IMG/VR virus record: IMGVR_UViG_3300027708_000059
DNA from: a virus
Strand: one strand, 5' to 3'
Length of the DNA: 64,000 nucleotides
Below are positions 18,856 through 64,000 of this stretch, in pieces. The notes beneath the pieces are model-generated. The model made no database searches. It saw nothing but the letters and a program-made list of their open reading frames with translations, and had not been told where the DNA came from. Within the stretch, counting starts at the first letter, position 1; each line of letters begins with the position of its first letter. The position numbers were made by a program, and so were the translations under genes.

Positions 18856-19383
18856 TTATTCTTTGAATACTGTGTAGACTTTTGTAGTCACAATCCTTCC
18901 AAAATACACTTTATGTATATTAACTCCCATATCATCACATTCTTTTTTTAATGCATTTTTTATAGCAGTGAGGGTTGTTTTCTTCTTAATGTCTTCCCAT
19001 TCACAATCTGTAAGATAATCTGCAATTATTCCACGTGAAACGTCATGTATATTTCCATCAGCAGTATTTGTGTCTATTAGATATTTTTTTGGATCTATTA
19101 TATCAAACTTAATGATTGGTTCTACTGATACTTGTTTATTATCAATTGTTGTAATATCTACAGGCTGAACATGAAAGGTATCTATAGATTTCATCACTAT
19201 ATGCACCTCATCCATCAACGGTATTTTCCAATTAACTCCTTCTTTTAAATTGTATTTATACTTACCAAGTCTCAATAGAACACCTGATTCGTAACATCTC
19301 AATACAACAATTGGGGAGAAATAGTCTTTAAACTTTTCTGCTACCCATTCAATTGTACTTATTAAAAGATTTCCGTCTAGCAT
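18856..19383 (-). CDS. hypothetical head-module protein
   Basis: ORF whose stop overlaps the portal gene start. Confidence 0.4.
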   Translation of the reverse strand: MLDGNLLISTIEWVAEKFKDYFSPIVVLRCYESGVLLRLGKYKYNLKEGVNWKIPLMDEVHIVMKSIDTFHVQPVDITTIDNKQVSVEPIIKFDIIDPKKYLIDTNTADGNIHDVSRGIIADYLTDCEWEDIKKKTTLTAIKNALKKECDDMGVNIHKVYFGRIVTTKVYTVFKE

Positions 19384-47665: not shown

Positions 47666-48033
47666 GAACATTAAAATACGGAGGAGATCTTCAAATAGGA
47701 GATTTTATTGGAGTAAGTGTTAATAATTGTATGGATTTTGGATGGTATTGTGGTGATGGTATAAATAAAACATTACAATATTATACTATATGGGCTCCTA
47801 AAGTTAGATATGAAGATTATGAAGCATGGAAAAAACTTCCAGAGGACAAAAATCCTGGGGCTTATAAGAATGGATGGACAATAAAATGTTTGTATAAATC
47901 ATATATAAACACTGTACATGATACAAGAGTGATAAAAATTCTTCATCCAGAAGATATATTTACAAATAAAGCAGATAGAGAAGCATACGAAAAGTCAAAA
48001 GAAGTATTAATTAAGTTAAATTTCATCAAATGA
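47662..48033 (+). CDS. hypothetical protein
   Basis: ORF with ATGA overlap to the GHKL gene. Confidence 0.4.
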   Translation: MRTLKYGGDLQIGDFIGVSVNNCMDFGWYCGDGINKTLQYYTIWAPKVRYEDYEAWKKLPEDKNPGAYKNGWTIKCLYKSYINTVHDTRVIKILHPEDIFTNKADREAYEKSKEVLIKLNFIK

Positions 48034-50366
48034 TATTAGAAAAACAAACAGAAGCCACCATTTTAGAAACAGGAGATTCATCAGAATCAATTGGTATGTC
48101 ATTAGACTTAGATTCTGCTCAGATATTGATGCAGATGTTAAGTAAGAATCTATATTCAGATTCAATAGGCTCCACTATCAGAGAATGTGCATCTAATGCA
48201 CTTGATAGTCATAGAAGAGCTGGTGTTGACAAACCTATAGTTGTAGGATTTAAGAAGAACAAAGAAGACAATTATGAATTCACTGTAGAAGATTTTGGTA
48301 TAGGCTTAGATGCTGATGATGTACGTAATATTATTAGTAAATACGGTAAATCTACCAAAAGGAATAGTAATACAGAATTGGGTATGATGGGACTTGGTTT
48401 TAAGGCTCCTCTTGCTTATAGTTCTAGTTTCTATTTTGTATGTAGGAAAGATGGTATGGAGAGGAAATACATGATGTATGAAGGTGAAGACACCAACAGC
48501 ATTGATCTTCTTTATGAAGCTTCTACAACAGAAGAAAATGGTGTAAAGATCATTATTCCAGTTAACTACTATGATAGAAGTGCATTCACCAGGAAGATTA
48601 AGGAGCAGTTGGCTTATTTTGAGAGTGTTTATTTTGATTGTGAGGATAATGTAAACAATGATTTTATCATCCACAGAAGTGAACATTTCCAATTCTCTGA
48701 ACTATCTAGTAGTGATTATTTACACATATCTCTAGACAATGTCTACTATCCTATTGATTTCGATAAACTAGGAATCAAAGAAAGGATAGACTTTCCTGTA
48801 GCATTGAGGTTTAGTCTTACAGATGGGTTATTTCCCACTCCAAACAGAGAATCCATTAGATATACCAAGGAAGCTAAACAAATCATCCTAGATAAGATAA
48901 GGAAGGTGGCTGATTTCTATGCTAATAAGTATAATGAGACTATGGTTGAAACAGATGATGTTACGGCTGTATTTAAACATTTCTCTGAATCTCGAAGGTA
49001 TGTAAAAGGATTCAAAAAAGATTCATCATTAAATATTAGCAATTTACATGAGTGGTGTTCTATAAAGCTTCTAAGTCCTACATTGAAAGGTGTTAAACTC
49101 TTAGATCTTGAGAGAGTTAATTTCATAAGAGAGCATCTTCTTCAGGAATATGAGATAAAGCATAGTGTTTCTAATAACAGAATAAAAGAAGCAAAGAGAA
49201 GCTATGATCAAGTGATTAATACATCAGACATAGACAGACATAAACTTTACATATATTCTGATAAAATCTCTGGTGCAAAGAAAAACTATTTGAAATCTAT
49301 TCATACTGGAAGATGGGAGAATGAAGGTAAACTAGTTAAGAGAAAACATACATCTGTTACATTAGGAAGTGTTTTACGTACCACTAATTATAAAACATAT
49401 GTAACATTACTAGAGCTTAAAAAACATCCAAAATCTGAATGGAGAGATAGAATTAAAGAATATCAACATATTGTATCCCTGTTAACTAATAATTTTATTA
49501 ATCTTGATGAGATGGTTATTCCTGATATATGGATAAAAAACAACACAAGAGCAAAAGCAGTTATCACTGGAACAACTGGTGGTGGTGTAAGAAGAGTTAA
49601 ACTAGCAGGAGAGATTGTTGGTAAAGAAGGCACACCATTAGAGAGATATGTAGATGGTAAAAACTGTAAATGGGTGAGTGTAACCTATAAACTAGAGGAA
49701 ATACATCGCATGAAACACCTTGTTGTATATGGTGGAGATGCTGATGTAGCTAAAATGGATAAATTGTTTAGTATTGTTGCAGGCAACAGGATGAAAACAA
49801 AGATTAAATTTATTCAGTTCTCAGAAAGGGAACTAAAGAATCTAGAAAAAATAGACATTCACAATTGGGTAAAACTTGAAACATTTATGGAAGGTAAAAA
49901 CAAACCATTCAAAAGACTAATCACTGCATATCTTATTCATCAATTAATGAGGAAAAATGAGGATGTGTTTGAGAAGAAACAACAACTTATGGGCATTTCT
50001 GGTGATCTCTATCTAAAACTTGATTTATTAGAAGAATACAAGGGTAAATATTTTTGTTATGCAAATGAAGACATATATAGTGCAATGTTAGAAATAGCTA
50101 ACGCTAACAATTTGTTCGATGGAGAGATATATCCTATATATAAGGAAATTAAAACTCTTACAGAGAAACTTACATTCTTACAACCATTATGTGATAAGCT
50201 TTCTTATTATCGTAATGAGAAAGATCCAATTCTAGATGCTATTGCAGATTTGTTCAAATATTACAGAACAAGAATAGATTGGAAAAACTACAACATTAAG
50301 TTGACAGAAGAAAAGTTGTTAGAGAAAGAGCTAACAGAAGAAAACGTTGAAGAATTAATAGACTAA
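48030..50366 (+). CDS. HSP90/HtpG-family GHKL ATPase (778 aa)
   Basis: LYSDSIGSTIRECASNALDS, EDFGIGL, ISKYGKST, GMMGLGFKAP, and middle-domain-like VNFIREHLLQ (cf. NVSREILQ). Confidence 0.65.
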   Translation: MILEKQTEATILETGDSSESIGMSLDLDSAQILMQMLSKNLYSDSIGSTIRECASNALDSHRRAGVDKPIVVGFKKNKEDNYEFTVEDFGIGLDADDVRNIISKYGKSTKRNSNTELGMMGLGFKAPLAYSSSFYFVCRKDGMERKYMMYEGEDTNSIDLLYEASTTEENGVKIIIPVNYYDRSAFTRKIKEQLAYFESVYFDCEDNVNNDFIIHRSEHFQFSELSSSDYLHISLDNVYYPIDFDKLGIKERIDFPVALRFSLTDGLFPTPNRESIRYTKEAKQIILDKIRKVADFYANKYNETMVETDDVTAVFKHFSESRRYVKGFKKDSSLNISNLHEWCSIKLLSPTLKGVKLLDLERVNFIREHLLQEYEIKHSVSNNRIKEAKRSYDQVINTSDIDRHKLYIYSDKISGAKKNYLKSIHTGRWENEGKLVKRKHTSVTLGSVLRTTNYKTYVTLLELKKHPKSEWRDRIKEYQHIVSLLTNNFINLDEMVIPDIWIKNNTRAKAVITGTTGGGVRRVKLAGEIVGKEGTPLERYVDGKNCKWVSVTYKLEEIHRMKHLVVYGGDADVAKMDKLFSIVAGNRMKTKIKFIQFSERELKNLEKIDIHNWVKLETFMEGKNKPFKRLITAYLIHQLMRKNEDVFEKKQQLMGISGDLYLKLDLLEEYKGKYFCYANEDIYSAMLEIANANNLFDGEIYPIYKEIKTLTEKLTFLQPLCDKLSYYRNEKDPILDAIADLFKYYRTRIDWKNYNIKLTEEKLLEKELTEENVEELID

Positions 50367-50416: not shown

Positions 50417-51973
50417 ATGAGTATCAGTTTCAATTGGTTCAAATCCAAAAAAGTACAAGAGTTACAAGATTTACAGATTGAGGAACAGAGGATCAAAAAT
50501 GACCTCTTACGTAAAGATTTATTTAAAACACCTTTCCCAGACACAATTAGTGTCAACATTGTAAGCAGTGAACCTAAAGTTGAGCCTAAAGAAGATTTAG
50601 ACAACAAGCCCTATCTAAATGTAAAACTAGTGAATGATGTGCTCACCATTGTTCTAAAAGATGGTAGCATAATTACAAAGCCTGGAGCTACAGCTGATGA
50701 TTTCAAAAGAGCTAGAGCATGTTTTACAGAGAACATGTTAATTGATCTTGTTGCTACACAGGAAGTGGTGCAAGAAAGAAAAGAAAGAGAAGATGAAGTT
50801 AAAAGGTTTAAAGCTATTCACAAAGGTTTTGAACTTTTGAGCAAGTTTAGCCATTTTAGAGTGGAGGGTAATTCTGTCTATCTATCTGGAATAAATAGAA
50901 GTCTTCCTCAATTACTAATAGAAAGATTTATAGAGATTGTAGACAGTTATAGCGATTTCTCCCAACCATATGCAGAAAAGTTGTTGTTACAAAATGATGA
51001 GTTCGTTGGACTAAAGAGGTTCTTTATGTGGGCTTGTCTAAATCCAAGAGTAGAAGTGGCAAACAGCTTATTTGATTTCCTAAGTAAAAATGGTATGAAG
51101 ATCACTAAACAAGGATTCTTTGTAGCATTGAGAAATGTTGTAACATCTCATGGATCTGCTGAACTAGTTCATTTCATTAGCAATGCTTATAATAAAGTGA
51201 AAGCTGTATGGAAGAAATCTCCAGCTGATTATCATGTATTCCTAGAGAATGGTGCATATAAAATGGTTCACACTGATTCCTTAACTTACACTATGATAGA
51301 AGATTGTGATAGATGTGATGGTTCTGGAACAACTTTTGAATATGATGAAGAATATGATGATCATGGTCATTGTTATGAGTGCGATGGTAAAGGTGATGTA
51401 GAAGTTACCTATCATAAAGACAATGGTCAATTGATTGGTAATCTAACAGAACTATATCTTGATCTTCCTAATAGATCAGAGAATAGATTTACAGACAACT
51501 GGACAAGAACATTTGATATTCGCATTGGACAAGTGGTGAGTATGCCAAGTGAGAATTGTGATTGGAGTACACAAGATTGTGCTACAGCAGGATTACACTT
51601 TGCTGGTCATACAGCTCCTTATGTTCTATGTGGTGATACAACAGTTTTCACTCTTCACAATCCTATGAAAGTTGTGGGTATTGGTACAGAGAAGGGTAGA
51701 TGCTGGGAATATCTTCCATTTATGACTACAAATGTTACTGAAGCAAATGAAATCATGAATGATAAAGATTTTGATTTCTTACAGCTAGATGAAGCATATG
51801 CAATTCGTGAATTGGAAAATCTTGCTGAGAAAGCTAAAGAAGGTTTCCAAACAGAAACTAGCAAGCATGATTTCAATCTGCCAAGTATTTCTGTAAATGA
51901 AATTAACAATATTGTAAAATCTCTAGATGAAATGAAAAGTGAAATTTCAAGTAGAGTGAGCAATATTGATTAA
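50417..51973 (+). CDS. protein with DnaJ-type CxxCxGxG zinc-finger repeats (518 aa)
   Basis: CDRCDGSG and CYECDGKG lie 20 residues apart. A further Cys cluster is CDWSTQDC...C. Flanked by terminators on both sides. Confidence 0.5.
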   Translation: MSISFNWFKSKKVQELQDLQIEEQRIKNDLLRKDLFKTPFPDTISVNIVSSEPKVEPKEDLDNKPYLNVKLVNDVLTIVLKDGSIITKPGATADDFKRARACFTENMLIDLVATQEVVQERKEREDEVKRFKAIHKGFELLSKFSHFRVEGNSVYLSGINRSLPQLLIERFIEIVDSYSDFSQPYAEKLLLQNDEFVGLKRFFMWACLNPRVEVANSLFDFLSKNGMKITKQGFFVALRNVVTSHGSAELVHFISNAYNKVKAVWKKSPADYHVFLENGAYKMVHTDSLTYTMIEDCDRCDGSGTTFEYDEEYDDHGHCYECDGKGDVEVTYHKDNGQLIGNLTELYLDLPNRSENRFTDNWTRTFDIRIGQVVSMPSENCDWSTQDCATAGLHFAGHTAPYVLCGDTTVFTLHNPMKVVGIGTEKGRCWEYLPFMTTNVTEANEIMNDKDFDFLQLDEAYAIRELENLAEKAKEGFQTETSKHDFNLPSISVNEINNIVKSLDEMKSEISSRVSNID

Positions 51974-59967: not shown

Positions 59968-60360
59968 TTGAAATGTTTAACCTGTGGTAAGAATGCTGAT
60001 AGTGAATATTGTTTTCAACATAAACCTAGAAAACCTCTAGCTCAATCTAGATTAAACAAATCTGCATTTTCTGCTGGTAACGTAAAGAAAATTAGTGAGA
60101 TGCAGGAGTTTTTTATGTCTTTATGGAAAAAAAGAAGACATTTCTCTGAGATTAGTGGAAAATATTTAGGTAAGGAACCAATGAGCACATATTTCCATCA
60201 CATTCTTCCAAAAGAAAAATACCCAGAAGCTTCTTTAGATGAAGAAAATATCATACTTTTGACACTTGATGAACACACCAATGTAGAAGGTGATATGTAT
60301 AAATACGAAGAAGTTAATAAACAACGTGAATTATTAAAAATTAAATATGGAAAAGCCTAA
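59968..60360 (+). CDS. HNH-like (His-Me finger) nuclease candidate with N-terminal zinc ribbon
   Basis: CLTCGK...CFQH, then FHHILPKEKYP ... NIILLTLDEH. Confidence 0.4.
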   Translation: MKCLTCGKNADSEYCFQHKPRKPLAQSRLNKSAFSAGNVKKISEMQEFFMSLWKKRRHFSEISGKYLGKEPMSTYFHHILPKEKYPEASLDEENIILLTLDEHTNVEGDMYKYEEVNKQRELLKIKYGKA

Positions 60361-60997
60361 CAGAGAAAGAAAAACAGATATAAAATATCTTATTCAACTC
60401 AATGAAGAACAAAAAATTGCTAAAAGTCTTATTGTAGATAATCAAGTGGTTGTTGTTACAGGTGTGGCAGGTACAGGTAAAAGCCTTGTATGTGCCCAAG
60501 TGGCATTAGATTTTCTTAATAAAAAACAAATAGAAGAAATCTACATCACTAGAGCAGCAATTGAAGTGGGCAAATCATTAGGTTTTCTACCTGGAGATCT
60601 TGGAGAAAAGTTTGATCCATATCTAGAAGCATTCAAAGATAATCTTTACAAATGCTGGGATAAAGTTAAAGTGGACAACATGCTCAAAGATGGTAAGGTG
60701 AAGGCTCTTCCTGTACAATTCATTCGTGGTAAAACTGTAGATGATCTTTTAATTGTAGAAGAGGCTCAAAATCTTTCTAAGCATGAAATATTAGCAATTT
60801 TAACTAGGCTTGGTAAAACAGGAAAGATTATTATTAATGGAGATAATGAACAAAAGGATATTAAAGATGACTTTAATGGACTTAGTTATGTTATAGAACT
60901 ATCTAAGAAAATCAAAGACATTAAATGGATTAAATTAAAAGAAAATCACAGAAGTGATCTTGTTGGAAAAATCCTAGATTATGAATATAATAGATAA
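60347..60997 (+). CDS. PhoH-like ATPase
   Basis: VVVVTGVAGTGKSLVCAQVAL (Walker A) and FIRGKTVDDLLIVEEAQNLS (PhoH box). Confidence 0.7.
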   Translation: MEKPNRERKTDIKYLIQLNEEQKIAKSLIVDNQVVVVTGVAGTGKSLVCAQVALDFLNKKQIEEIYITRAAIEVGKSLGFLPGDLGEKFDPYLEAFKDNLYKCWDKVKVDNMLKDGKVKALPVQFIRGKTVDDLLIVEEAQNLSKHEILAILTRLGKTGKIIINGDNEQKDIKDDFNGLSYVIELSKKIKDIKWIKLKENHRSDLVGKILDYEYNR

Positions 60998-61025
60998 TAA
61001 TTTTAAACAATAAACCAAAATAAAC

Positions 61026-61328
61026 ATGAAAAATCAGTTCTTTTACACTAGAAAAGACATTACAGGAGGAACTCCTGAAGCCCCAGAATTTAAAACTTAT
61101 ACAGACAGTTTTAACGTTGAAAAGGTTATTCGTAGCCTATCAATTGAAGATGGTAGGACATTAGTCTTATTAGATGATCTTCATGAGAGAGTACAAGAAA
61201 CTCCAGATATAGATGTTAGGACCAACAAGATTAAAGGTGTTAAGCGTGAACGTAATATATTTCAAAGTGAAATCTATTTAGATGATGCTGATGCTAGTAG
61301 ATTCTATATGTTAACATCAATTGGATAA
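61026..61328 (+). CDS. hypothetical protein
   Basis: ORF. Confidence 0.4.
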   Translation: MKNQFFYTRKDITGGTPEAPEFKTYTDSFNVEKVIRSLSIEDGRTLVLLDDLHERVQETPDIDVRTNKIKGVKRERNIFQSEIYLDDADASRFYMLTSIG

Positions 61329-62073
61329 TATGCTTCCATTCATTAGTTGTAAATGTATAACTTACGGAAGAGTAGTTACGCTTGAGGAGAGTATTGAATC
61401 TTTTCTCAAGCAAGACTATCCTTCAGATAGGTGTGAGCTTGTAATAGTTAATGACTATCCTTTGCAAACTCTTATTTATGATCATCCTCAAATTAAAATA
61501 GTTAATCTATCTGAGACCTTTACCACTATAGGTAAAAAAGAGAATTATGCTACAGAATTATGTCAAGGAGATATAATATGTCAATGGGATGATGATGATG
61601 TAGCTCTACCACACCATTTAAATAATGTAGCTAAATACATGACTGATAGTGTGAATATCATTCACTGGGAAACAGGAGTGTTATGTCATATTACAGGAAT
61701 TGAACAAGTGGGTTGGATAGGTAATTCTGGTATTGTGTTTCGTAAATCAGCTTGGAAAGCTGTAGGAGGACATCCTCTTGAAAATGCTGGATATGATATG
61801 ACATTTATTGAAAGTATCAATAGATATGGAGGAAGACTATTTGTTAAAATGCCTAAAGAAGAAGCTTCTTGGTTTTATATGTGGGGAGGTAGAGGTTATC
61901 ATATGAGTGGAGAAGGTACAGATCATCCTGGAAAACTCAATGCTATACAAAGGCACAGTGCTCATATTGAAAGAGAAAGAATCAATGGAAGAATTCCAAC
62001 AGGAGAAGTCTTATTAGTTCCTAATTGGAAAGAAGATTATTCAGAAATATTAAAAAACTATTTAAAATTGTAA
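61321..62073 (+). CDS. family-2-like glycosyltransferase
   Basis: ELVIVNDYP (the VVDDGS position) and ICQWDDDDV (DXD motif), in a GT-A-like arrangement. Confidence 0.5.
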   Translation: MDNMLPFISCKCITYGRVVTLEESIESFLKQDYPSDRCELVIVNDYPLQTLIYDHPQIKIVNLSETFTTIGKKENYATELCQGDIICQWDDDDVALPHHLNNVAKYMTDSVNIIHWETGVLCHITGIEQVGWIGNSGIVFRKSAWKAVGGHPLENAGYDMTFIESINRYGGRLFVKMPKEEASWFYMWGGRGYHMSGEGTDHPGKLNAIQRHSAHIERERINGRIPTGEVLLVPNWKEDYSEILKNYLKL

Positions 62074-62074
62074 A

Positions 62075-62611
62075 ATGGCACATCCAGAACAGAGAACATT
62101 CATGACATATGTAAAAGATAAATTTCCTGAAAAGTTTACAAATTGCAGAGTGTTAGATATTGGTTCATTAGATATTAATGGAAACAATCATTATTTATTT
62201 ACAAACTACAAATACATTGGTGTAGATATTGGTGCAGGAAATAATGTAGATGTTGTGTGTAGAGGACATGAATTTAAAGACTCTGAAGGATTTGATATTG
62301 TTATATCAGCTGAATGTTTTGAACATGATGAATTTTGGAAAGATACAATTAAAAACTGCATCAATCTAACTAAACCAGGAGGAGTGTTCTTATTTAGTTG
62401 TGCTACAACAGGAAGACATGAACATGGTACAAAAAGAACTACTCCTCAAGATTCTCCATTTACATCAGAAATTGAGAATGATTATTACATGAATCTTACA
62501 GAACAAGATATTCGTGAAGAGATAGATATGGAAAATCATTTCTCTGAGCATGAGTTTATTGCTAGAGAAACATGGCCTCAAGATTTATATTTCTGGGGAA
62601 TGAAGAAATAA
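62075..62611 (+). CDS. class I SAM-dependent methyltransferase
   Basis: Motif I VLDIGSLDINGN, DIVISAECFEH, and KPGGVFLFS. Confidence 0.55.
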   Translation: MAHPEQRTFMTYVKDKFPEKFTNCRVLDIGSLDINGNNHYLFTNYKYIGVDIGAGNNVDVVCRGHEFKDSEGFDIVISAECFEHDEFWKDTIKNCINLTKPGGVFLFSCATTGRHEHGTKRTTPQDSPFTSEIENDYYMNLTEQDIREEIDMENHFSEHEFIARETWPQDLYFWGMKK

Positions 62612-62647
62612 AAAAAAGCTCCTTAATAGGGAGCTTTTCTTTTAGTC
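62612..62647. terminator. bidirectional terminator between convergent blocks
   Basis: A8 - AGCTCC-ttaata-GGGAGCT - TTTCTTTT. Confidence 0.6.
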
Positions 62648-62750
62648 CTATAATACTGAGACTATAGGGGGGCTTGCCAGTTTTATTTATTATTACTTTC
62701 TAGGCAGTTAGGACATGTTCCTTCATAATATATATTATGAATAGAGCATA

Positions 62751-62909
62751 TCATTTTGATAATCTTTTTTGTTTCATAGGAGCCATAGGACTCTTTAGTC
62801 TCTTAACTGTATCAGCTTCCTTCATATAATTTCCATTAACTGGATTAGGAGGCTTTACCTTGGGAGCCTTTCTTGGTGCTCCAGACTTCTTAGCTTTACC
62901 TGATGTCAT
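62751..62909 (-). CDS. Lys-rich small basic protein (52 aa)
   Basis: MTSGKAKKSGAPRKAPKVKPPNPVNG... Its ATG overlaps the upstream stop as TAATG. Not in the track because it is under 60 aa. Confidence 0.4.
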   Translation of the reverse strand: MTSGKAKKSGAPRKAPKVKPPNPVNGNYMKEADTVKRLKSPMAPMKQKRLSK

Positions 62910-63328
62910 TAGCAACCATTTTTACATTTACCACCCATCTTCATCATTCCACCTTTTTTCATAGATGTAGGTACCATAGAAGCAGCTGATCCACCATATT
63001 GCATTTTCTTCTTAGGTGTTTTGCCTTCTTTCTTCATAGCAATTGCTATTGCAGCCTGCTTAGCCATCTTACCACCCATTTTCATCTTAGATCCAGCTTT
63101 AGCTTTAATAACTCCACGTCCTACAAGAATATCAGCTTTGCTAATTTTACCATCTTTATTAAGATCAGGAAATGAAGCACCGTCTTTAGCTTTGTTAAGG
63201 TTACCAACATTCTTAGAAACAGAATTCTTAGATGGAGATAATGTACCACCACCTTTCATCATTGGTGCCATTTTATCCATTACTTTTTTAGCTATTGCTT
63301 TTTTAACAGCTTTTTTAATTGTTGCCAT
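62909..63328 (-). CDS. Lys/Gly/Met-rich basic protein (139 aa)
   Basis: MATIKKAVKKAIAKKV ... MKKGGMMKMGGKCKNGC. Low-complexity basic sequence. Confidence 0.5.
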   Translation of the reverse strand: MATIKKAVKKAIAKKVMDKMAPMMKGGGTLSPSKNSVSKNVGNLNKAKDGASFPDLNKDGKISKADILVGRGVIKAKAGSKMKMGGKMAKQAAIAIAMKKEGKTPKKKMQYGGSAASMVPTSMKKGGMMKMGGKCKNGC

Positions 63329-63353
63329 TTTTATTTGTTTTATATTTTAATAA

Positions 63354-63905
63354 TTATTTACCTTTACGAGCTTTGCCCATTGCTTTAAATGTTTTAGCTA
63401 ATGCTTTTCTTTTAGGAGTACATGTTGCTTTTGTCATAGGAGTGCAATATCCTTTGTGTTTAGGATTAACAGCCTTTTGAATCCAGTTCTTGTCTTTTAC
63501 TTTACCACCAGATTTCATCTTTGTAGCACCAAGTTCTTTATCTTTCTTTAATACAGGAGCAGCAGCTGTTTTTCCAGCTATTGTATTTTCTTGAACTTTA
63601 GTCCATGCACCATTAGGATCAATTGGTCCAACAGCAGCAGATGGTTTAAGACCAAGACCAGCTTGAGCTTTTTTCATTTTACCACCACCTCTAAGTTTAA
63701 AGCCCATTTTATCATATCCAGGCTTTCCTTTAAGCTTTTGTCTATCCACATCTTTATCTGCTTGCTTTATTTTCATAGAAGCTTCTCTCATAGCAGGAGC
63801 TGAAGTAGCTTTTGACATTTCTAATGCAGCTTGATTACCTTTTTTCTTGTAGATAGCTGTACTATCACCGTATTGAGCTTTTTTAATTTTTTTAACTGTT
63901 GCCAT
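63354..63905 (-). CDS. Lys-rich basic protein (183 aa)
   Basis: MATVKKIKKAQ ... KTFKAMGKARKGK. Its N-terminus is paralogous to the 139-aa protein. Confidence 0.5.
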   Translation of the reverse strand: MATVKKIKKAQYGDSTAIYKKKGNQAALEMSKATSAPAMREASMKIKQADKDVDRQKLKGKPGYDKMGFKLRGGGKMKKAQAGLGLKPSAAVGPIDPNGAWTKVQENTIAGKTAAAPVLKKDKELGATKMKSGGKVKDKNWIQKAVNPKHKGYCTPMTKATCTPKRKALAKTFKAMGKARKGK

Positions 63906-64000
63906 TATTTTTTTGTTTTAGCTTTAATTTTCTTCTCTTGTTTAAGCATCTGAGCTGTAGGTTTCTTTCCAGATCCTTTAGCTGCTCTGATATTATCCCA
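63906..64000 (-). CDS. Lys-rich basic protein, 5' end beyond window
   Basis: Open frame ...WDNIRAAKGSGKKPTAQMLKQEKKIKAKTKK with its stop overlapping the next ATG (TAATG). Confidence 0.4.

Follow-up and report, generated by a model that had tools for sequence, protein, structure and literature searches.

Lysine-rich mini-module proteins of an uncultured, distantly crAss-related phage as candidate internal head proteins

Introduction

What a phage does with a run of small, extremely lysine-rich proteins is the question raised by one end of the 64,000-nucleotide sequence of IMG/VR virus record IMGVR_UViG_3300027708_000059 (the window), where such proteins are encoded on the minus strand between positions 62,751 and 64,000. 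These genes are the distal two-thirds of a late cassette of six, whose products read as strings of short conserved mini-modules. Because relatives of these modules occur in head-gene clusters, behind a head-targeting tag and in a protein detected in virions, the cassette most likely encodes DNA-binding proteins packed in the capsid. The reading favoured here, at a probability of about 0.5, is that they are packaged internal head proteins that would neutralise the charge of the DNA, analogous to the internal proteins of T4 but without their tag. Packaged DNA-binding cargo or ejected internal proteins had been suggested in an earlier note made from the window sequence; the head-associated relatives favour that direction.

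A cassette of six conserved basic genes

The window ends within the fourth of these genes. Contig L001 (JGI 3300009684), which is identical to the window at 2000 of 2000 overlapping bases, runs 3.5 kb further; on it the truncated gene is complete and encodes 49 amino acids (aa; MAKQMIKRADGSTSQRGLWDNIRAAKGSGKKPTAQMLKQEKKIKAKTKK), a member of a GL(W/Y)xNI family of small basic proteins, and upstream of it lie two genes, encoding 119 aa and 134 aa, that are just as basic. The unit therefore has six genes: the earlier count of at least four is right for the window, and the full array is larger. The 119-aa protein matched DUF6321 (PF19846) in Pfam at 68.1 bits (cut-off 28.5 bits), a match given by none of the four window genes. 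The six proteins (49-183 aa each; isoelectric point (pI) 10.2-11.1; 18-24% Lys) total 676 aa and together carry a net charge of +135, start with MAT.., MAK.. or MTS.., and are flanked upstream by acidic proteins of pI 4.5-6.4. Those in the window have a pI of 10.3-11.0, 22-24% Lys and net charges spanning +12 to +34 (including +13, +27 and +34), in contrast to a median pI of 5.6 for the 39 open reading frames (ORFs) of the window of at least 150 aa.

The genes were homologous to large families: at E<=0.01, 1998 homologues were found for the 183-aa protein, 659 for the 139-aa protein and 1393 for the 49-aa protein. An identical 183-aa protein is encoded by at least 14 metagenome contigs, on at least four of which the cassette ORFs are identical. 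When compared with diverged relatives on contigs L005, L006 and L133, clearly orthologous pairs gave dN/dS values of 0.06-0.48 and amino-acid identities of 64-92%, and in several pairs the synonymous sites were saturated or nearly so. The 52-aa gene retained 92% protein identity at a dS of 0.91 (dN/dS 0.06-0.14), and the 49-aa gene 86% with synonymous sites saturated. Gene boundaries vary among these related phages, and the frames stay open throughout. The cassette genes are real, separate, conserved and under purifying selection. The concern, voiced in the earlier note itself, that extension of the contig might reveal parts of one larger frameshifted gene did not materialise on the extended contigs, and its term 'low-complexity' does not describe what is a conserved mosaic of mini-modules with 659-1998 homologues.

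In five independent contigs the position of the cassette is syntenic: it follows a DUF5856 gene and two small acidic genes and ends with a 46-58-aa 'KLRLKSPMxPMKQKRLSK' gene before a converging glycosyltransferase/RecA block. The 52-aa gene is invariably the last of the cassette, its orthologues closing the array in L005, L006 and L133.

The proposal that the array consists of tandem paralogues was rejected because no two of its proteins are significantly similar, all-versus-all BLASTP of the six giving a best E of 0.11; what the array proteins have in common is just the start, the linker motif and the composition. Also rejected was the idea that the MAT(V/I)KK start, present on both larger window genes (183 and 139 aa), is an array-specific targeting tag, as three window ORFs outside the array start with MA[TK][ILV][KR]K (24336 (-), 7725 (-) and 32131 (+)). 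This type of start may instead reflect a preferred translation-start context in a genome of 32% G+C.

Mini-modules and their joining motif

By sequence comparison, each cassette protein is a string of conserved mini-modules of 20-70 aa joined by K-M-K-x-G-G-K, a recurrent motif also written KK(A/M)QxG. The consensus around 744 G-G sites, taken from the first 259 homologues of the 183- and 139-aa families, was K(49%)-M(64%)-K(65%)/Q(19%)-x-G-G-K(40%). The pattern [MLK][KRQMN]xGG occurred 12 times in the six proteins; in 2000 composition-preserving shuffles it was present 1.1 times on average and never more than 6 times. KIKKAQxG often follows an internal G-G, where it resembles the MAxIKKAQxG starts of separately encoded genes.

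The 183-aa protein has three modules, which in its relatives are combined as A+C, B+C, A+B and in other ways. Module A starts with MATVKKIKKAQYG, continues with a helical hairpin and the motif KGKPGYDKMGF, and is found in homologues with or without B and C. Module B (KMKKAQAGL..VGPIDPNGAWTKVQE..AGK..KDKELGATKMKSGG) occurs independently of A and C, and its GP[VI]D..G[AW] motif is present in 59 of 120 among the homologues listed. Module C (K(D/N)WIQKAVNPKHKGYCTPMTKATCTPKRKALAKTFKAMGKARKGK, also given as KNWIQKAVNPKHKGYCTPMTKATCTPKRKALAKTFKAMGKARKGK) is the most conserved, with 27 near-invariant columns, W141-T172 included, in a 51-sequence alignment, and is present in 110 of 120 among the homologues listed; it occurs twice in the acidic 300-aa proteins P0038 and P0058 and together with DUF3008 in P0069.

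The 139-aa protein consists, in order, of the MATIKK start, GGTLSPSKNSVSKNVGNLNKAKDG, a calcium-loop-like FPDLNKDGKISKADIL, KQAAIAIAMKKEGKTPKKKMQYGG (family form of this third module, KQAAIAIAMKKxGKTPKKKMQYGG) and a terminal KMGGKCKNGC. The loop region (FPDLNKDGKI(S/T)KADIL) is near-invariant in the family over columns S52-V73, and the pattern DLNKDGKISKAD was found in 88 of 120 among the 139-aa homologues listed. It is present as a single copy, was modelled with low confidence, and matched Pfam below threshold (EF-hand_5, E=0.04; Dockerin_1, E=0.03; 13.9-14.9 bits against cut-offs of 22.9-25.9). In one 139-aa homologue, P0152, the first ~60 residues are joined at the DLNKDGKIT loop to what is, by eye, a C-terminus like that of a SusC/TonB-dependent receptor; this protein is either a chimeric assembly or a product of recombination at the common calcium-loop motif.

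In relatives the modules are redistributed among genes. Module B is fused to modules of the 139-aa family in P0143 and P0159, which, with P0013 and P0017, are fusions of 139- and 183-aa gene modules, while P0057 (212 aa) fuses modules of the 134-, 119-, 183- and 49-aa genes. On L005, a 153-aa protein is made of a piece of the 139-aa protein and the entire 49-aa protein, and a 160-aa protein of an N-terminal piece of the 119-aa protein and the 134-aa protein. Pairs of cysteines are frequent (the CKNGC end, CTP..CTP and SFCARM..WKC).

When modelled with AlphaFold2 (AF2) from family alignments, the 183-aa protein gave a mean predicted local distance difference test score (pLDDT) of 67, with values >90 at roughly residues 20-60, the hairpin of module A, which is its sole confidently folded part; the 139-aa protein gave a mean pLDDT of 56 and no confident fold. 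The cassette proteins are predicted to be mostly disordered.

Cassette modules in T4-like phages

Three cassette modules, DUF6321, GLW/YxNI and CWxGY, recur in marine phages at up to 85% identity, and sequence comparison showed them to be homologous to modules of T4-like and T7-like phage proteins. The DUF6321 gene matched 547 phage records (up to 85% identity), mostly T4-like cyanomyoviruses and also pelagiphages, Microcystis and Methylophilales phages and T7-like cyanophages.

Protein PSSM7_194 of phage P-SSM7 is arranged as MKTYSQFIEE-GKKKGLWDNIHAKRKRGE..-DUF6321, and its first ten residues closely match the MKTYQEFIAE start of T4 IPII and IPIII. The first 10 residues of IPIII are enough for head targeting, positions 4 and 7 acting in targeting and positions 8 and 10 in processing (PMC9026906); PSSM7_194 keeps Y4, F7, I8 and E10. 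The module behind the tag, GLWDNIHAKRKR, matches the 49-aa cassette gene: when 11,197 ORF segments from T4-like and T7-like loci were ranked with a hidden Markov model (HMM) of the 49-aa family, three ORFs with the tag, or capsid-targeting sequence (CTS), followed by GLWDNI (CTS-GLWDNIHAKRKR) came first (E 1e-4 to 1e-2), the next match having E>3.

IMG/VR was also scanned for the DNA pattern of a capsid-targeting-like N-terminus, which gave at least 124 distinct ORFs. Among the matches listed, 87 of 124 tagged ORFs had a pI >9, five contained DUF6321, which in two ORFs was accompanied by GLWDNI immediately behind the tag, and in five the tag was followed directly by KKCWPGYKKKGTQKLFGKTYNRCVKE. 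The last module (CWPGYKKKGT..CVK) matches the C-terminal module of the 134-aa cassette protein, SCWTGYMKKGTKKGKGGKTVNNCVKKK.

PSSM7_194 is labelled T4-GC119 in GenBank. In purified virions of S-SM1, T4-GC119 was detected by mass spectrometry (13 peptide counts) and is entered as 'Structural protein' (Sullivan 2010, PMC3037559, Suppl. Table 8); the same table lists a 519-nt P-SSM7 member of T4-GC119, which is PSSM7_194. In S-SM1 the T4-GC119 protein is SSM1_115 (495 aa); encoded between gp16 and gp17, it is a mosaic with a CWxGY module and DUF6321 (79.6 bits). Lys-rich proteins are in general ill-suited to tryptic mass spectrometry, which limits this kind of detection.

Many further mini-modules, such as GDFWHPDPDKDRK.., DACYHKVKSRYSVWPSAYASGALVKCRK and RDWFSKSKSSDGKPGWV..KPKCGS, were noted in SSM1_115 (L130:28537-30024) and in a 939-aa protein of ACG-2014f (L008:1418-4237); the cassette therefore displays only a small part of the module pool. 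The GDWWHPDP module also stands behind a capsid-targeting-like start in three IMG/VR ORFs (L010, L079 and L116).

Cassette modules in T7-like phages

Prochlorococcus phage P-SCSP1o has the gene order portal, scaffold, major capsid, an 84-aa DUF6321 gene, a 58-aa MAKKKGLYANIHAKRKRIKAGSGEKMRKPG.. gene, tail tube gp11 and gp12; in Pelagibacter phage HTVC031P it is portal, scaffold, a 49-aa MAKRGLYANIHAKRKRIAAGSGEKMRK.. gene, an 81-aa DUF6321 gene, capsid and tail tube. In both (genes 14/15 and gp29/gp30, respectively) DUF6321 adjoins a 49-58-aa GLYANIHAKRKR gene, with pI values of 11.3-12.0. Both families are fused in S-CAM4 (..KRGLYANIHAKRKRGE..AFQKAARTAKE..-DUF6321), in a gene between the small and large terminase genes, and in the cassette the 119-aa DUF6321 gene is followed immediately by the 49-aa gene. 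The two thus form a conserved gene pair, located in head/packaging neighbourhoods in those phages and in the cassette here. The HMM of the 49-aa family gave no direct match to the T7-like GLYANIHAKRKR proteins, and this link rests on the bridging sequences PSSM7_194 and S-CAM4 gp151.

Database searches

Scans of the four window proteins against PHROGs, Pfam and NCBIfam gave just the sub-threshold EF-hand/dockerin matches described above. No enzymatic domain and no similarity to ribosomal or known nucleoid proteins was found in these three collections, and no linker-histone or other DNA-binding domain was matched in Pfam at E<=1. The earlier comparison with histone H1 does not extend beyond composition: like linker histone H1, the cassette proteins are Lys/Ala-rich, disordered and strongly cationic, but they have neither its winged-helix globular domain nor sequence or profile similarity to it. 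Homology to histone H1 was rejected, as there was no Pfam linker-histone match, no relative in the Protein Data Bank (PDB) was found, and a Foldseek search of PDB with the 183-aa model returned generic helical hairpins alone (all E >0.9). PDB sequence relatives were absent for the 183-aa family profile and for the two small P-SCSP1o proteins.

When the 183-, 134-, 139- and 49-aa proteins were compared with 50,697 phage genomes by tBLASTn, there was no match except one at E=0.5; low-complexity filtering may contribute to this lack of matches. Six homologues from NCBI belong to clusters labelled just 'hypothetical protein', all DUF6321 PHROGs are of 'unknown function', and DUF6321 was not mentioned in the literature searched. 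Neither the P-SCSP1u cryo-EM paper nor the MPP-C podovirus genome paper seems to deal with the small basic genes, and no passage on mass spectrometry or a virion proteome was found in the latter.

The phage, its neighbouring genes and the coordinates

The minus strand of the window encodes terminase, portal, major head protein and a 1567-aa virion protein, and the plus strand DNA polymerase, rIIA/rIIB, ribonucleotide reductase, RecA, dUTPase and PhoH. The portal is ~26% identical to portals of crAss-like phages, with weaker matches to Flavobacterium, Cellulophaga and Leptolyngbya phages. Megablast of window positions 60000-64000 gave no match among deposited phage genomes, none of which is close at the DNA level. 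Cassette-protein homologues were found on contigs of 86-130 kb, and some of their 90%-identity clusters have as many as 207 members. The lineage is therefore an abundant one without cultured representatives, consisting of phages of about 100-130 kb that are distantly related to crAss-like phages.

Several neighbouring genes were recorded. An unusual occupant of the head-morphogenesis module is a 175-aa SPFH/Band-7 protein (18856-19383 (-); Pfam, 53.7 bits), encoded between the portal gene and a 421-aa gene that lies upstream of the major head protein gene. The rIIA-like gene (48030-50366 (+); PHROG E=1e-54) and the rIIB-like gene (50417-51973 (+); E=2e-11) are carried by a phage outside the T4-like group. 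On L001 the cassette is directly preceded by a 321-aa protein resembling LCIB/C beta-carbonic anhydrases (L001:1690-2655; 68 bits) and the DUF5856 protein (L001:467-892), which precedes the array in 5/5 related contigs. Three genes upstream of the cassette (L001:231-455, L005:7103-7336 and L005:7348-7953) end in long poly-Thr/Ser tracts; a common N-terminal KAYVRFDGxGRxVxGSLI.. domain is present in three consecutive genes, and fibre or appendage proteins are possible. The middle of the array in one related phage is interrupted by a 142-aa gene (L006:9146-9574) whose non-basic product contains an HExxH motif (HETMH), has no Pfam match and has a weak PHROG match to HNH (E about 1e-3). This product may be a small metalloprotease and, if so, would be relevant to the idea, taken up below, that the G-G linkers are cleaved.

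Features at the window end are listed in Table 1. The gene lengths, the terminator and the extremely basic Lys-rich composition given in the earlier note were confirmed, as were its two MAT(I/V)KK starts and its TAATG overlaps at two of the three junctions. The stop codon of the 139-aa gene overlaps the ATG of the 52-aa gene (62911-62907), and that of the 49-aa gene overlaps the ATG of the 183-aa gene (63907-63903); the 139-aa and 183-aa genes are separated by a 25-nt spacer.

Table 1. Coordinates of the cassette genes, modules and terminator in the window
Feature	Position	Strand	Remarks
Bidirectional intrinsic-terminator hairpin	62610-62642	both	13 bp, AAGCTCC..GGAGCTT, T-runs on both strands, terminator score on each strand; end of the minus-strand basic-protein cassette and of the converging plus-strand block
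52-aa gene	62751-62909	minus	ATG 62909-62907; product MTSGKAKKSGAPRKAPKVKPPNP..MKEADT..LKSPMAPMKQKRLSK, pI 11.0
139-aa gene	62909-63328	minus	23% Lys, 11% Met, pI 10.4
EF-hand/dockerin-like loop, residues 52-73 of 139-aa protein	63110-63175	minus	D-x-N-x-D-G-x-I-x-x-x-D + helix
183-aa gene	63354-63905	minus	pI 10.3, net charge +34; modules A, B and C joined via K-x-G-G linkers
Module C of 183-aa protein, residues 135-183	63357-63503	minus	
Module B of 183-aa protein, residues 76-134	63504-63680	minus	
Module A of 183-aa protein, residues 1-75	63681-63905	minus	
3' end of 49-aa gene	63905-64000	minus	31 codons + stop; truncated by window end

Discussion

If the cassette encodes internal head proteins, they would be made late and packaged together with the genome, their lysines would offset the phosphate charge of the DNA during and after packaging, and they would leave the capsid together with the DNA, after which individual conserved modules may have more specific targets. 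In T4, about 1000 internal-protein molecules are packed with the DNA in each head, lysines alone were seen to contact DNA phosphates, and it has been suggested that these proteins contribute to the speed of packaging (PMC3012670); their ejection accompanies that of the DNA (PMC3012670, PMC9026906). Packaging of the proteins of this lineage, their binding and neutralisation of DNA and their ejection are what we infer here; judging by fusion and co-location, the 183-, 139- and 52-aa proteins would share the packaged fate.

Like IPI, IPII and IPIII of T4, the cassette consists of small basic proteins from several unrelated genes with little in common beyond an N-terminal signature, and three of its modules stand behind a T4-type CTS-like N-terminus in T4-like marine phages. 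The differences are that the phage is not T4-like, that the six proteins lack the capsid-targeting sequence that defines T4 internal proteins, that no gp21-type protease was identified, that T4 internal proteins are less basic (pI 8.9-9.5 and 13-15% Lys, versus 10.2-11.1 and 18-24%), and that they are single folded domains such as IPI*, whereas the cassette proteins are mini-module mosaics.

The cyanophage T4-GC119 proteins (SSM1_115, PSSM7_194, S-CAM4 gp151 and the 939-aa protein of ACG-2014f, which also ends in DUF6321) are Lys-rich mosaics whose DUF6321 is 62-85% identical to the 119-aa protein and whose different members contain GLW/YxNI and CWxGY. Here the modules are fused in a single chain of 141-939 aa, which often has a CTS-like start or is encoded between the terminase genes, whereas the cassette splits the modules over adjacent small genes and adds others lacking in cyanophages (WIQKA.., VGPxDPxGAWTKVQ, the calcium-like loop and CKNGC). 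The T7-like DUF6321/GLYANIHAKRKR pair comprises the same two families in adjacent, small, very basic genes, all annotated as hypothetical, but it stands alone inside the portal-scaffold-capsid-tail-tube cluster, whereas the cassette has six genes at the far end of the late block. Polyvalent proteins (Iyer et al. 2017, PMC5512222) are module strings whose genes lie near virion genes and which are predicted to enter the capsid and to be delivered together with the DNA, and the cassette has the same kind of combinatorial architecture; polyvalent proteins are, however, large, with enzymatic or effector domains and often a processing peptidase, whereas the cassette modules are basic, 20-70 aa long and without recognisable catalytic domain.

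The probability of the internal-protein reading was kept at about 0.5 because several observations weigh against it. Its family links are indirect: the 183-, 139- and 52-aa families are tied to head-associated modules just via fusions and co-location, they have no detectable relatives in the 50,697 deposited phage genomes, and profile HMMs of the 183- and 139-aa families gave no significant match among the 11,197 ORF segments. No capsid-targeting signal of the MKTYQEFIAE type is present on the six proteins, and no MKT[YF] start was found among the first 240 homologues listed; no gp21-type prohead protease was found among the head-region genes examined, in a search that was not exhaustive; and the MATxKK start recurs on the three ORFs outside the array. 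Between phages whose hosts belong to different phyla, DUF6321 keeps 60-85% identity, a conservation that exceeds the needs of a simple counter-ion and suggests a specific conserved partner beyond bulk DNA. To the same side belong the T4-GC119 member of Syn9, which was undetected in virions (PMC3037559), and the M15 endolysin that related contigs place about 5-7 kb upstream, in a co-directional block with the cassette.

Some of these observations would be explained if the proteins were never packaged and acted inside the cell, either coating or compacting DNA or RNA or binding the ribosome or RNA polymerase in host takeover. The conservation of DUF6321 and GLW/YxNI across phages of cyanobacteria, SAR11 and Methylophilales and this lineage suggests a universal specific target, and the missing packaging signal and the undetected Syn9 homologue point the same way. 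This explanation is nevertheless judged unlikely: the homologous modules lie in head and packaging clusters of T4-like and T7-like phages and not in early regions, several relatives carry a CTS-like tag and one was detected in virions by mass spectrometry, and no similarity to ribosomal or nucleoid proteins emerged from Pfam, NCBIfam or PHROGs.

That position in head and packaging clusters could also belong to transient helpers of head assembly or DNA packaging, which would neutralise charge at the motor or bind the inner capsid or scaffold without being retained. DUF6321 and its small partner lie between scaffold and capsid in HTVC031P and between capsid and tail tube in P-SCSP1o, in S-SM1, S-CAM4 and ACG-2014f the small and large terminase genes flank a gene that carries DUF6321 or the fused pair, and for T4 it has been proposed that the electrostatics of internal proteins accelerate packaging (PMC3012670). 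Presence of the S-SM1 homologue in mature purified virions and retention of CTS-tagged T4 internal proteins in the head (PMC9026906) make a purely transient role improbable.

The upstream endolysin, together with the small size, cationic nature and frequent cysteine pairs of the proteins, brings to mind membrane-active lysis or entry peptides of the disruptin or antimicrobial kind, perhaps freed by cleavage of the G-G linkers. Such a role is very improbable, as the cassette does not adjoin the endolysin gene, the homologous T4-like and T7-like modules are in head/packaging clusters and not in lysis cassettes, and the models are mostly disordered, with no membrane-active amphipathic helix identified. 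To our knowledge, 676 aa of basic protein also far exceeds any single-peptide outer-membrane disruptor. An artefact, whether AT-rich non-coding sequence with AAA-rich Lys frames or one frameshifted gene in pieces, has a negligible probability: at 32% G+C Lys codons are indeed frequent in the window, but the identical ORFs on several contigs, the intact orthologues in diverged phages, 64-92% amino-acid identity despite near-saturated synonymous sites (dN/dS 0.06-0.48), the hundreds to thousands of homologues and the frames that stay open despite moved gene boundaries refute it.

A bolder version of the internal-protein reading, which we hold to be rather unlikely, is that the cassette is the unfused form of a pan-phage 'alphabet' of basic mini-modules, horizontally exchanged, loaded into the capsid in lineage-specific ways and injected, with cleavage at K-M-K-x-G-G-K. 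Its members may include DUF6321, GLW/YxNI, CWxGY, WIQKA..CTP..CTP and the calcium-like loop, and its users may include T4-like phages, T7-like phages and this crAss-related group. The N-termini of the cleaved peptides (..GG|KIKKAQxG) may mimic the starts of separate genes (MA|KIKKAQxG), and the extreme conservation of the modules may reflect specific universal bacterial targets and not DNA coating alone.

The novel aspect is that candidate internal basic proteins, in a phage outside the T4-like group, are split over separate genes whose mini-modules recombine freely; unexpected are the module pool common to T4-like, T7-like and crAss-related phages and the K-M-K-x-G-G-K motif. The architecture of the cassette also shows, with unusual clarity, how genes fuse and split in nature at the level of peptides. 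If the internal-protein reading is true, abundant uncultured aquatic phages would pack a whole cassette of disordered Lys-rich proteins without the T4 targeting tag, built from blocks common, at up to 85% identity, to T4-like and T7-like phages of cyanobacteria and SAR11. DUF6321, and with it several unnamed small-protein families that are very common in marine and lake viromes, would then gain a first clue to function; the concept of the 'internal protein' would reach past T4-like phages; and attention would turn to a class of virion proteins often overlooked by tryptic proteomics and cryo-EM.

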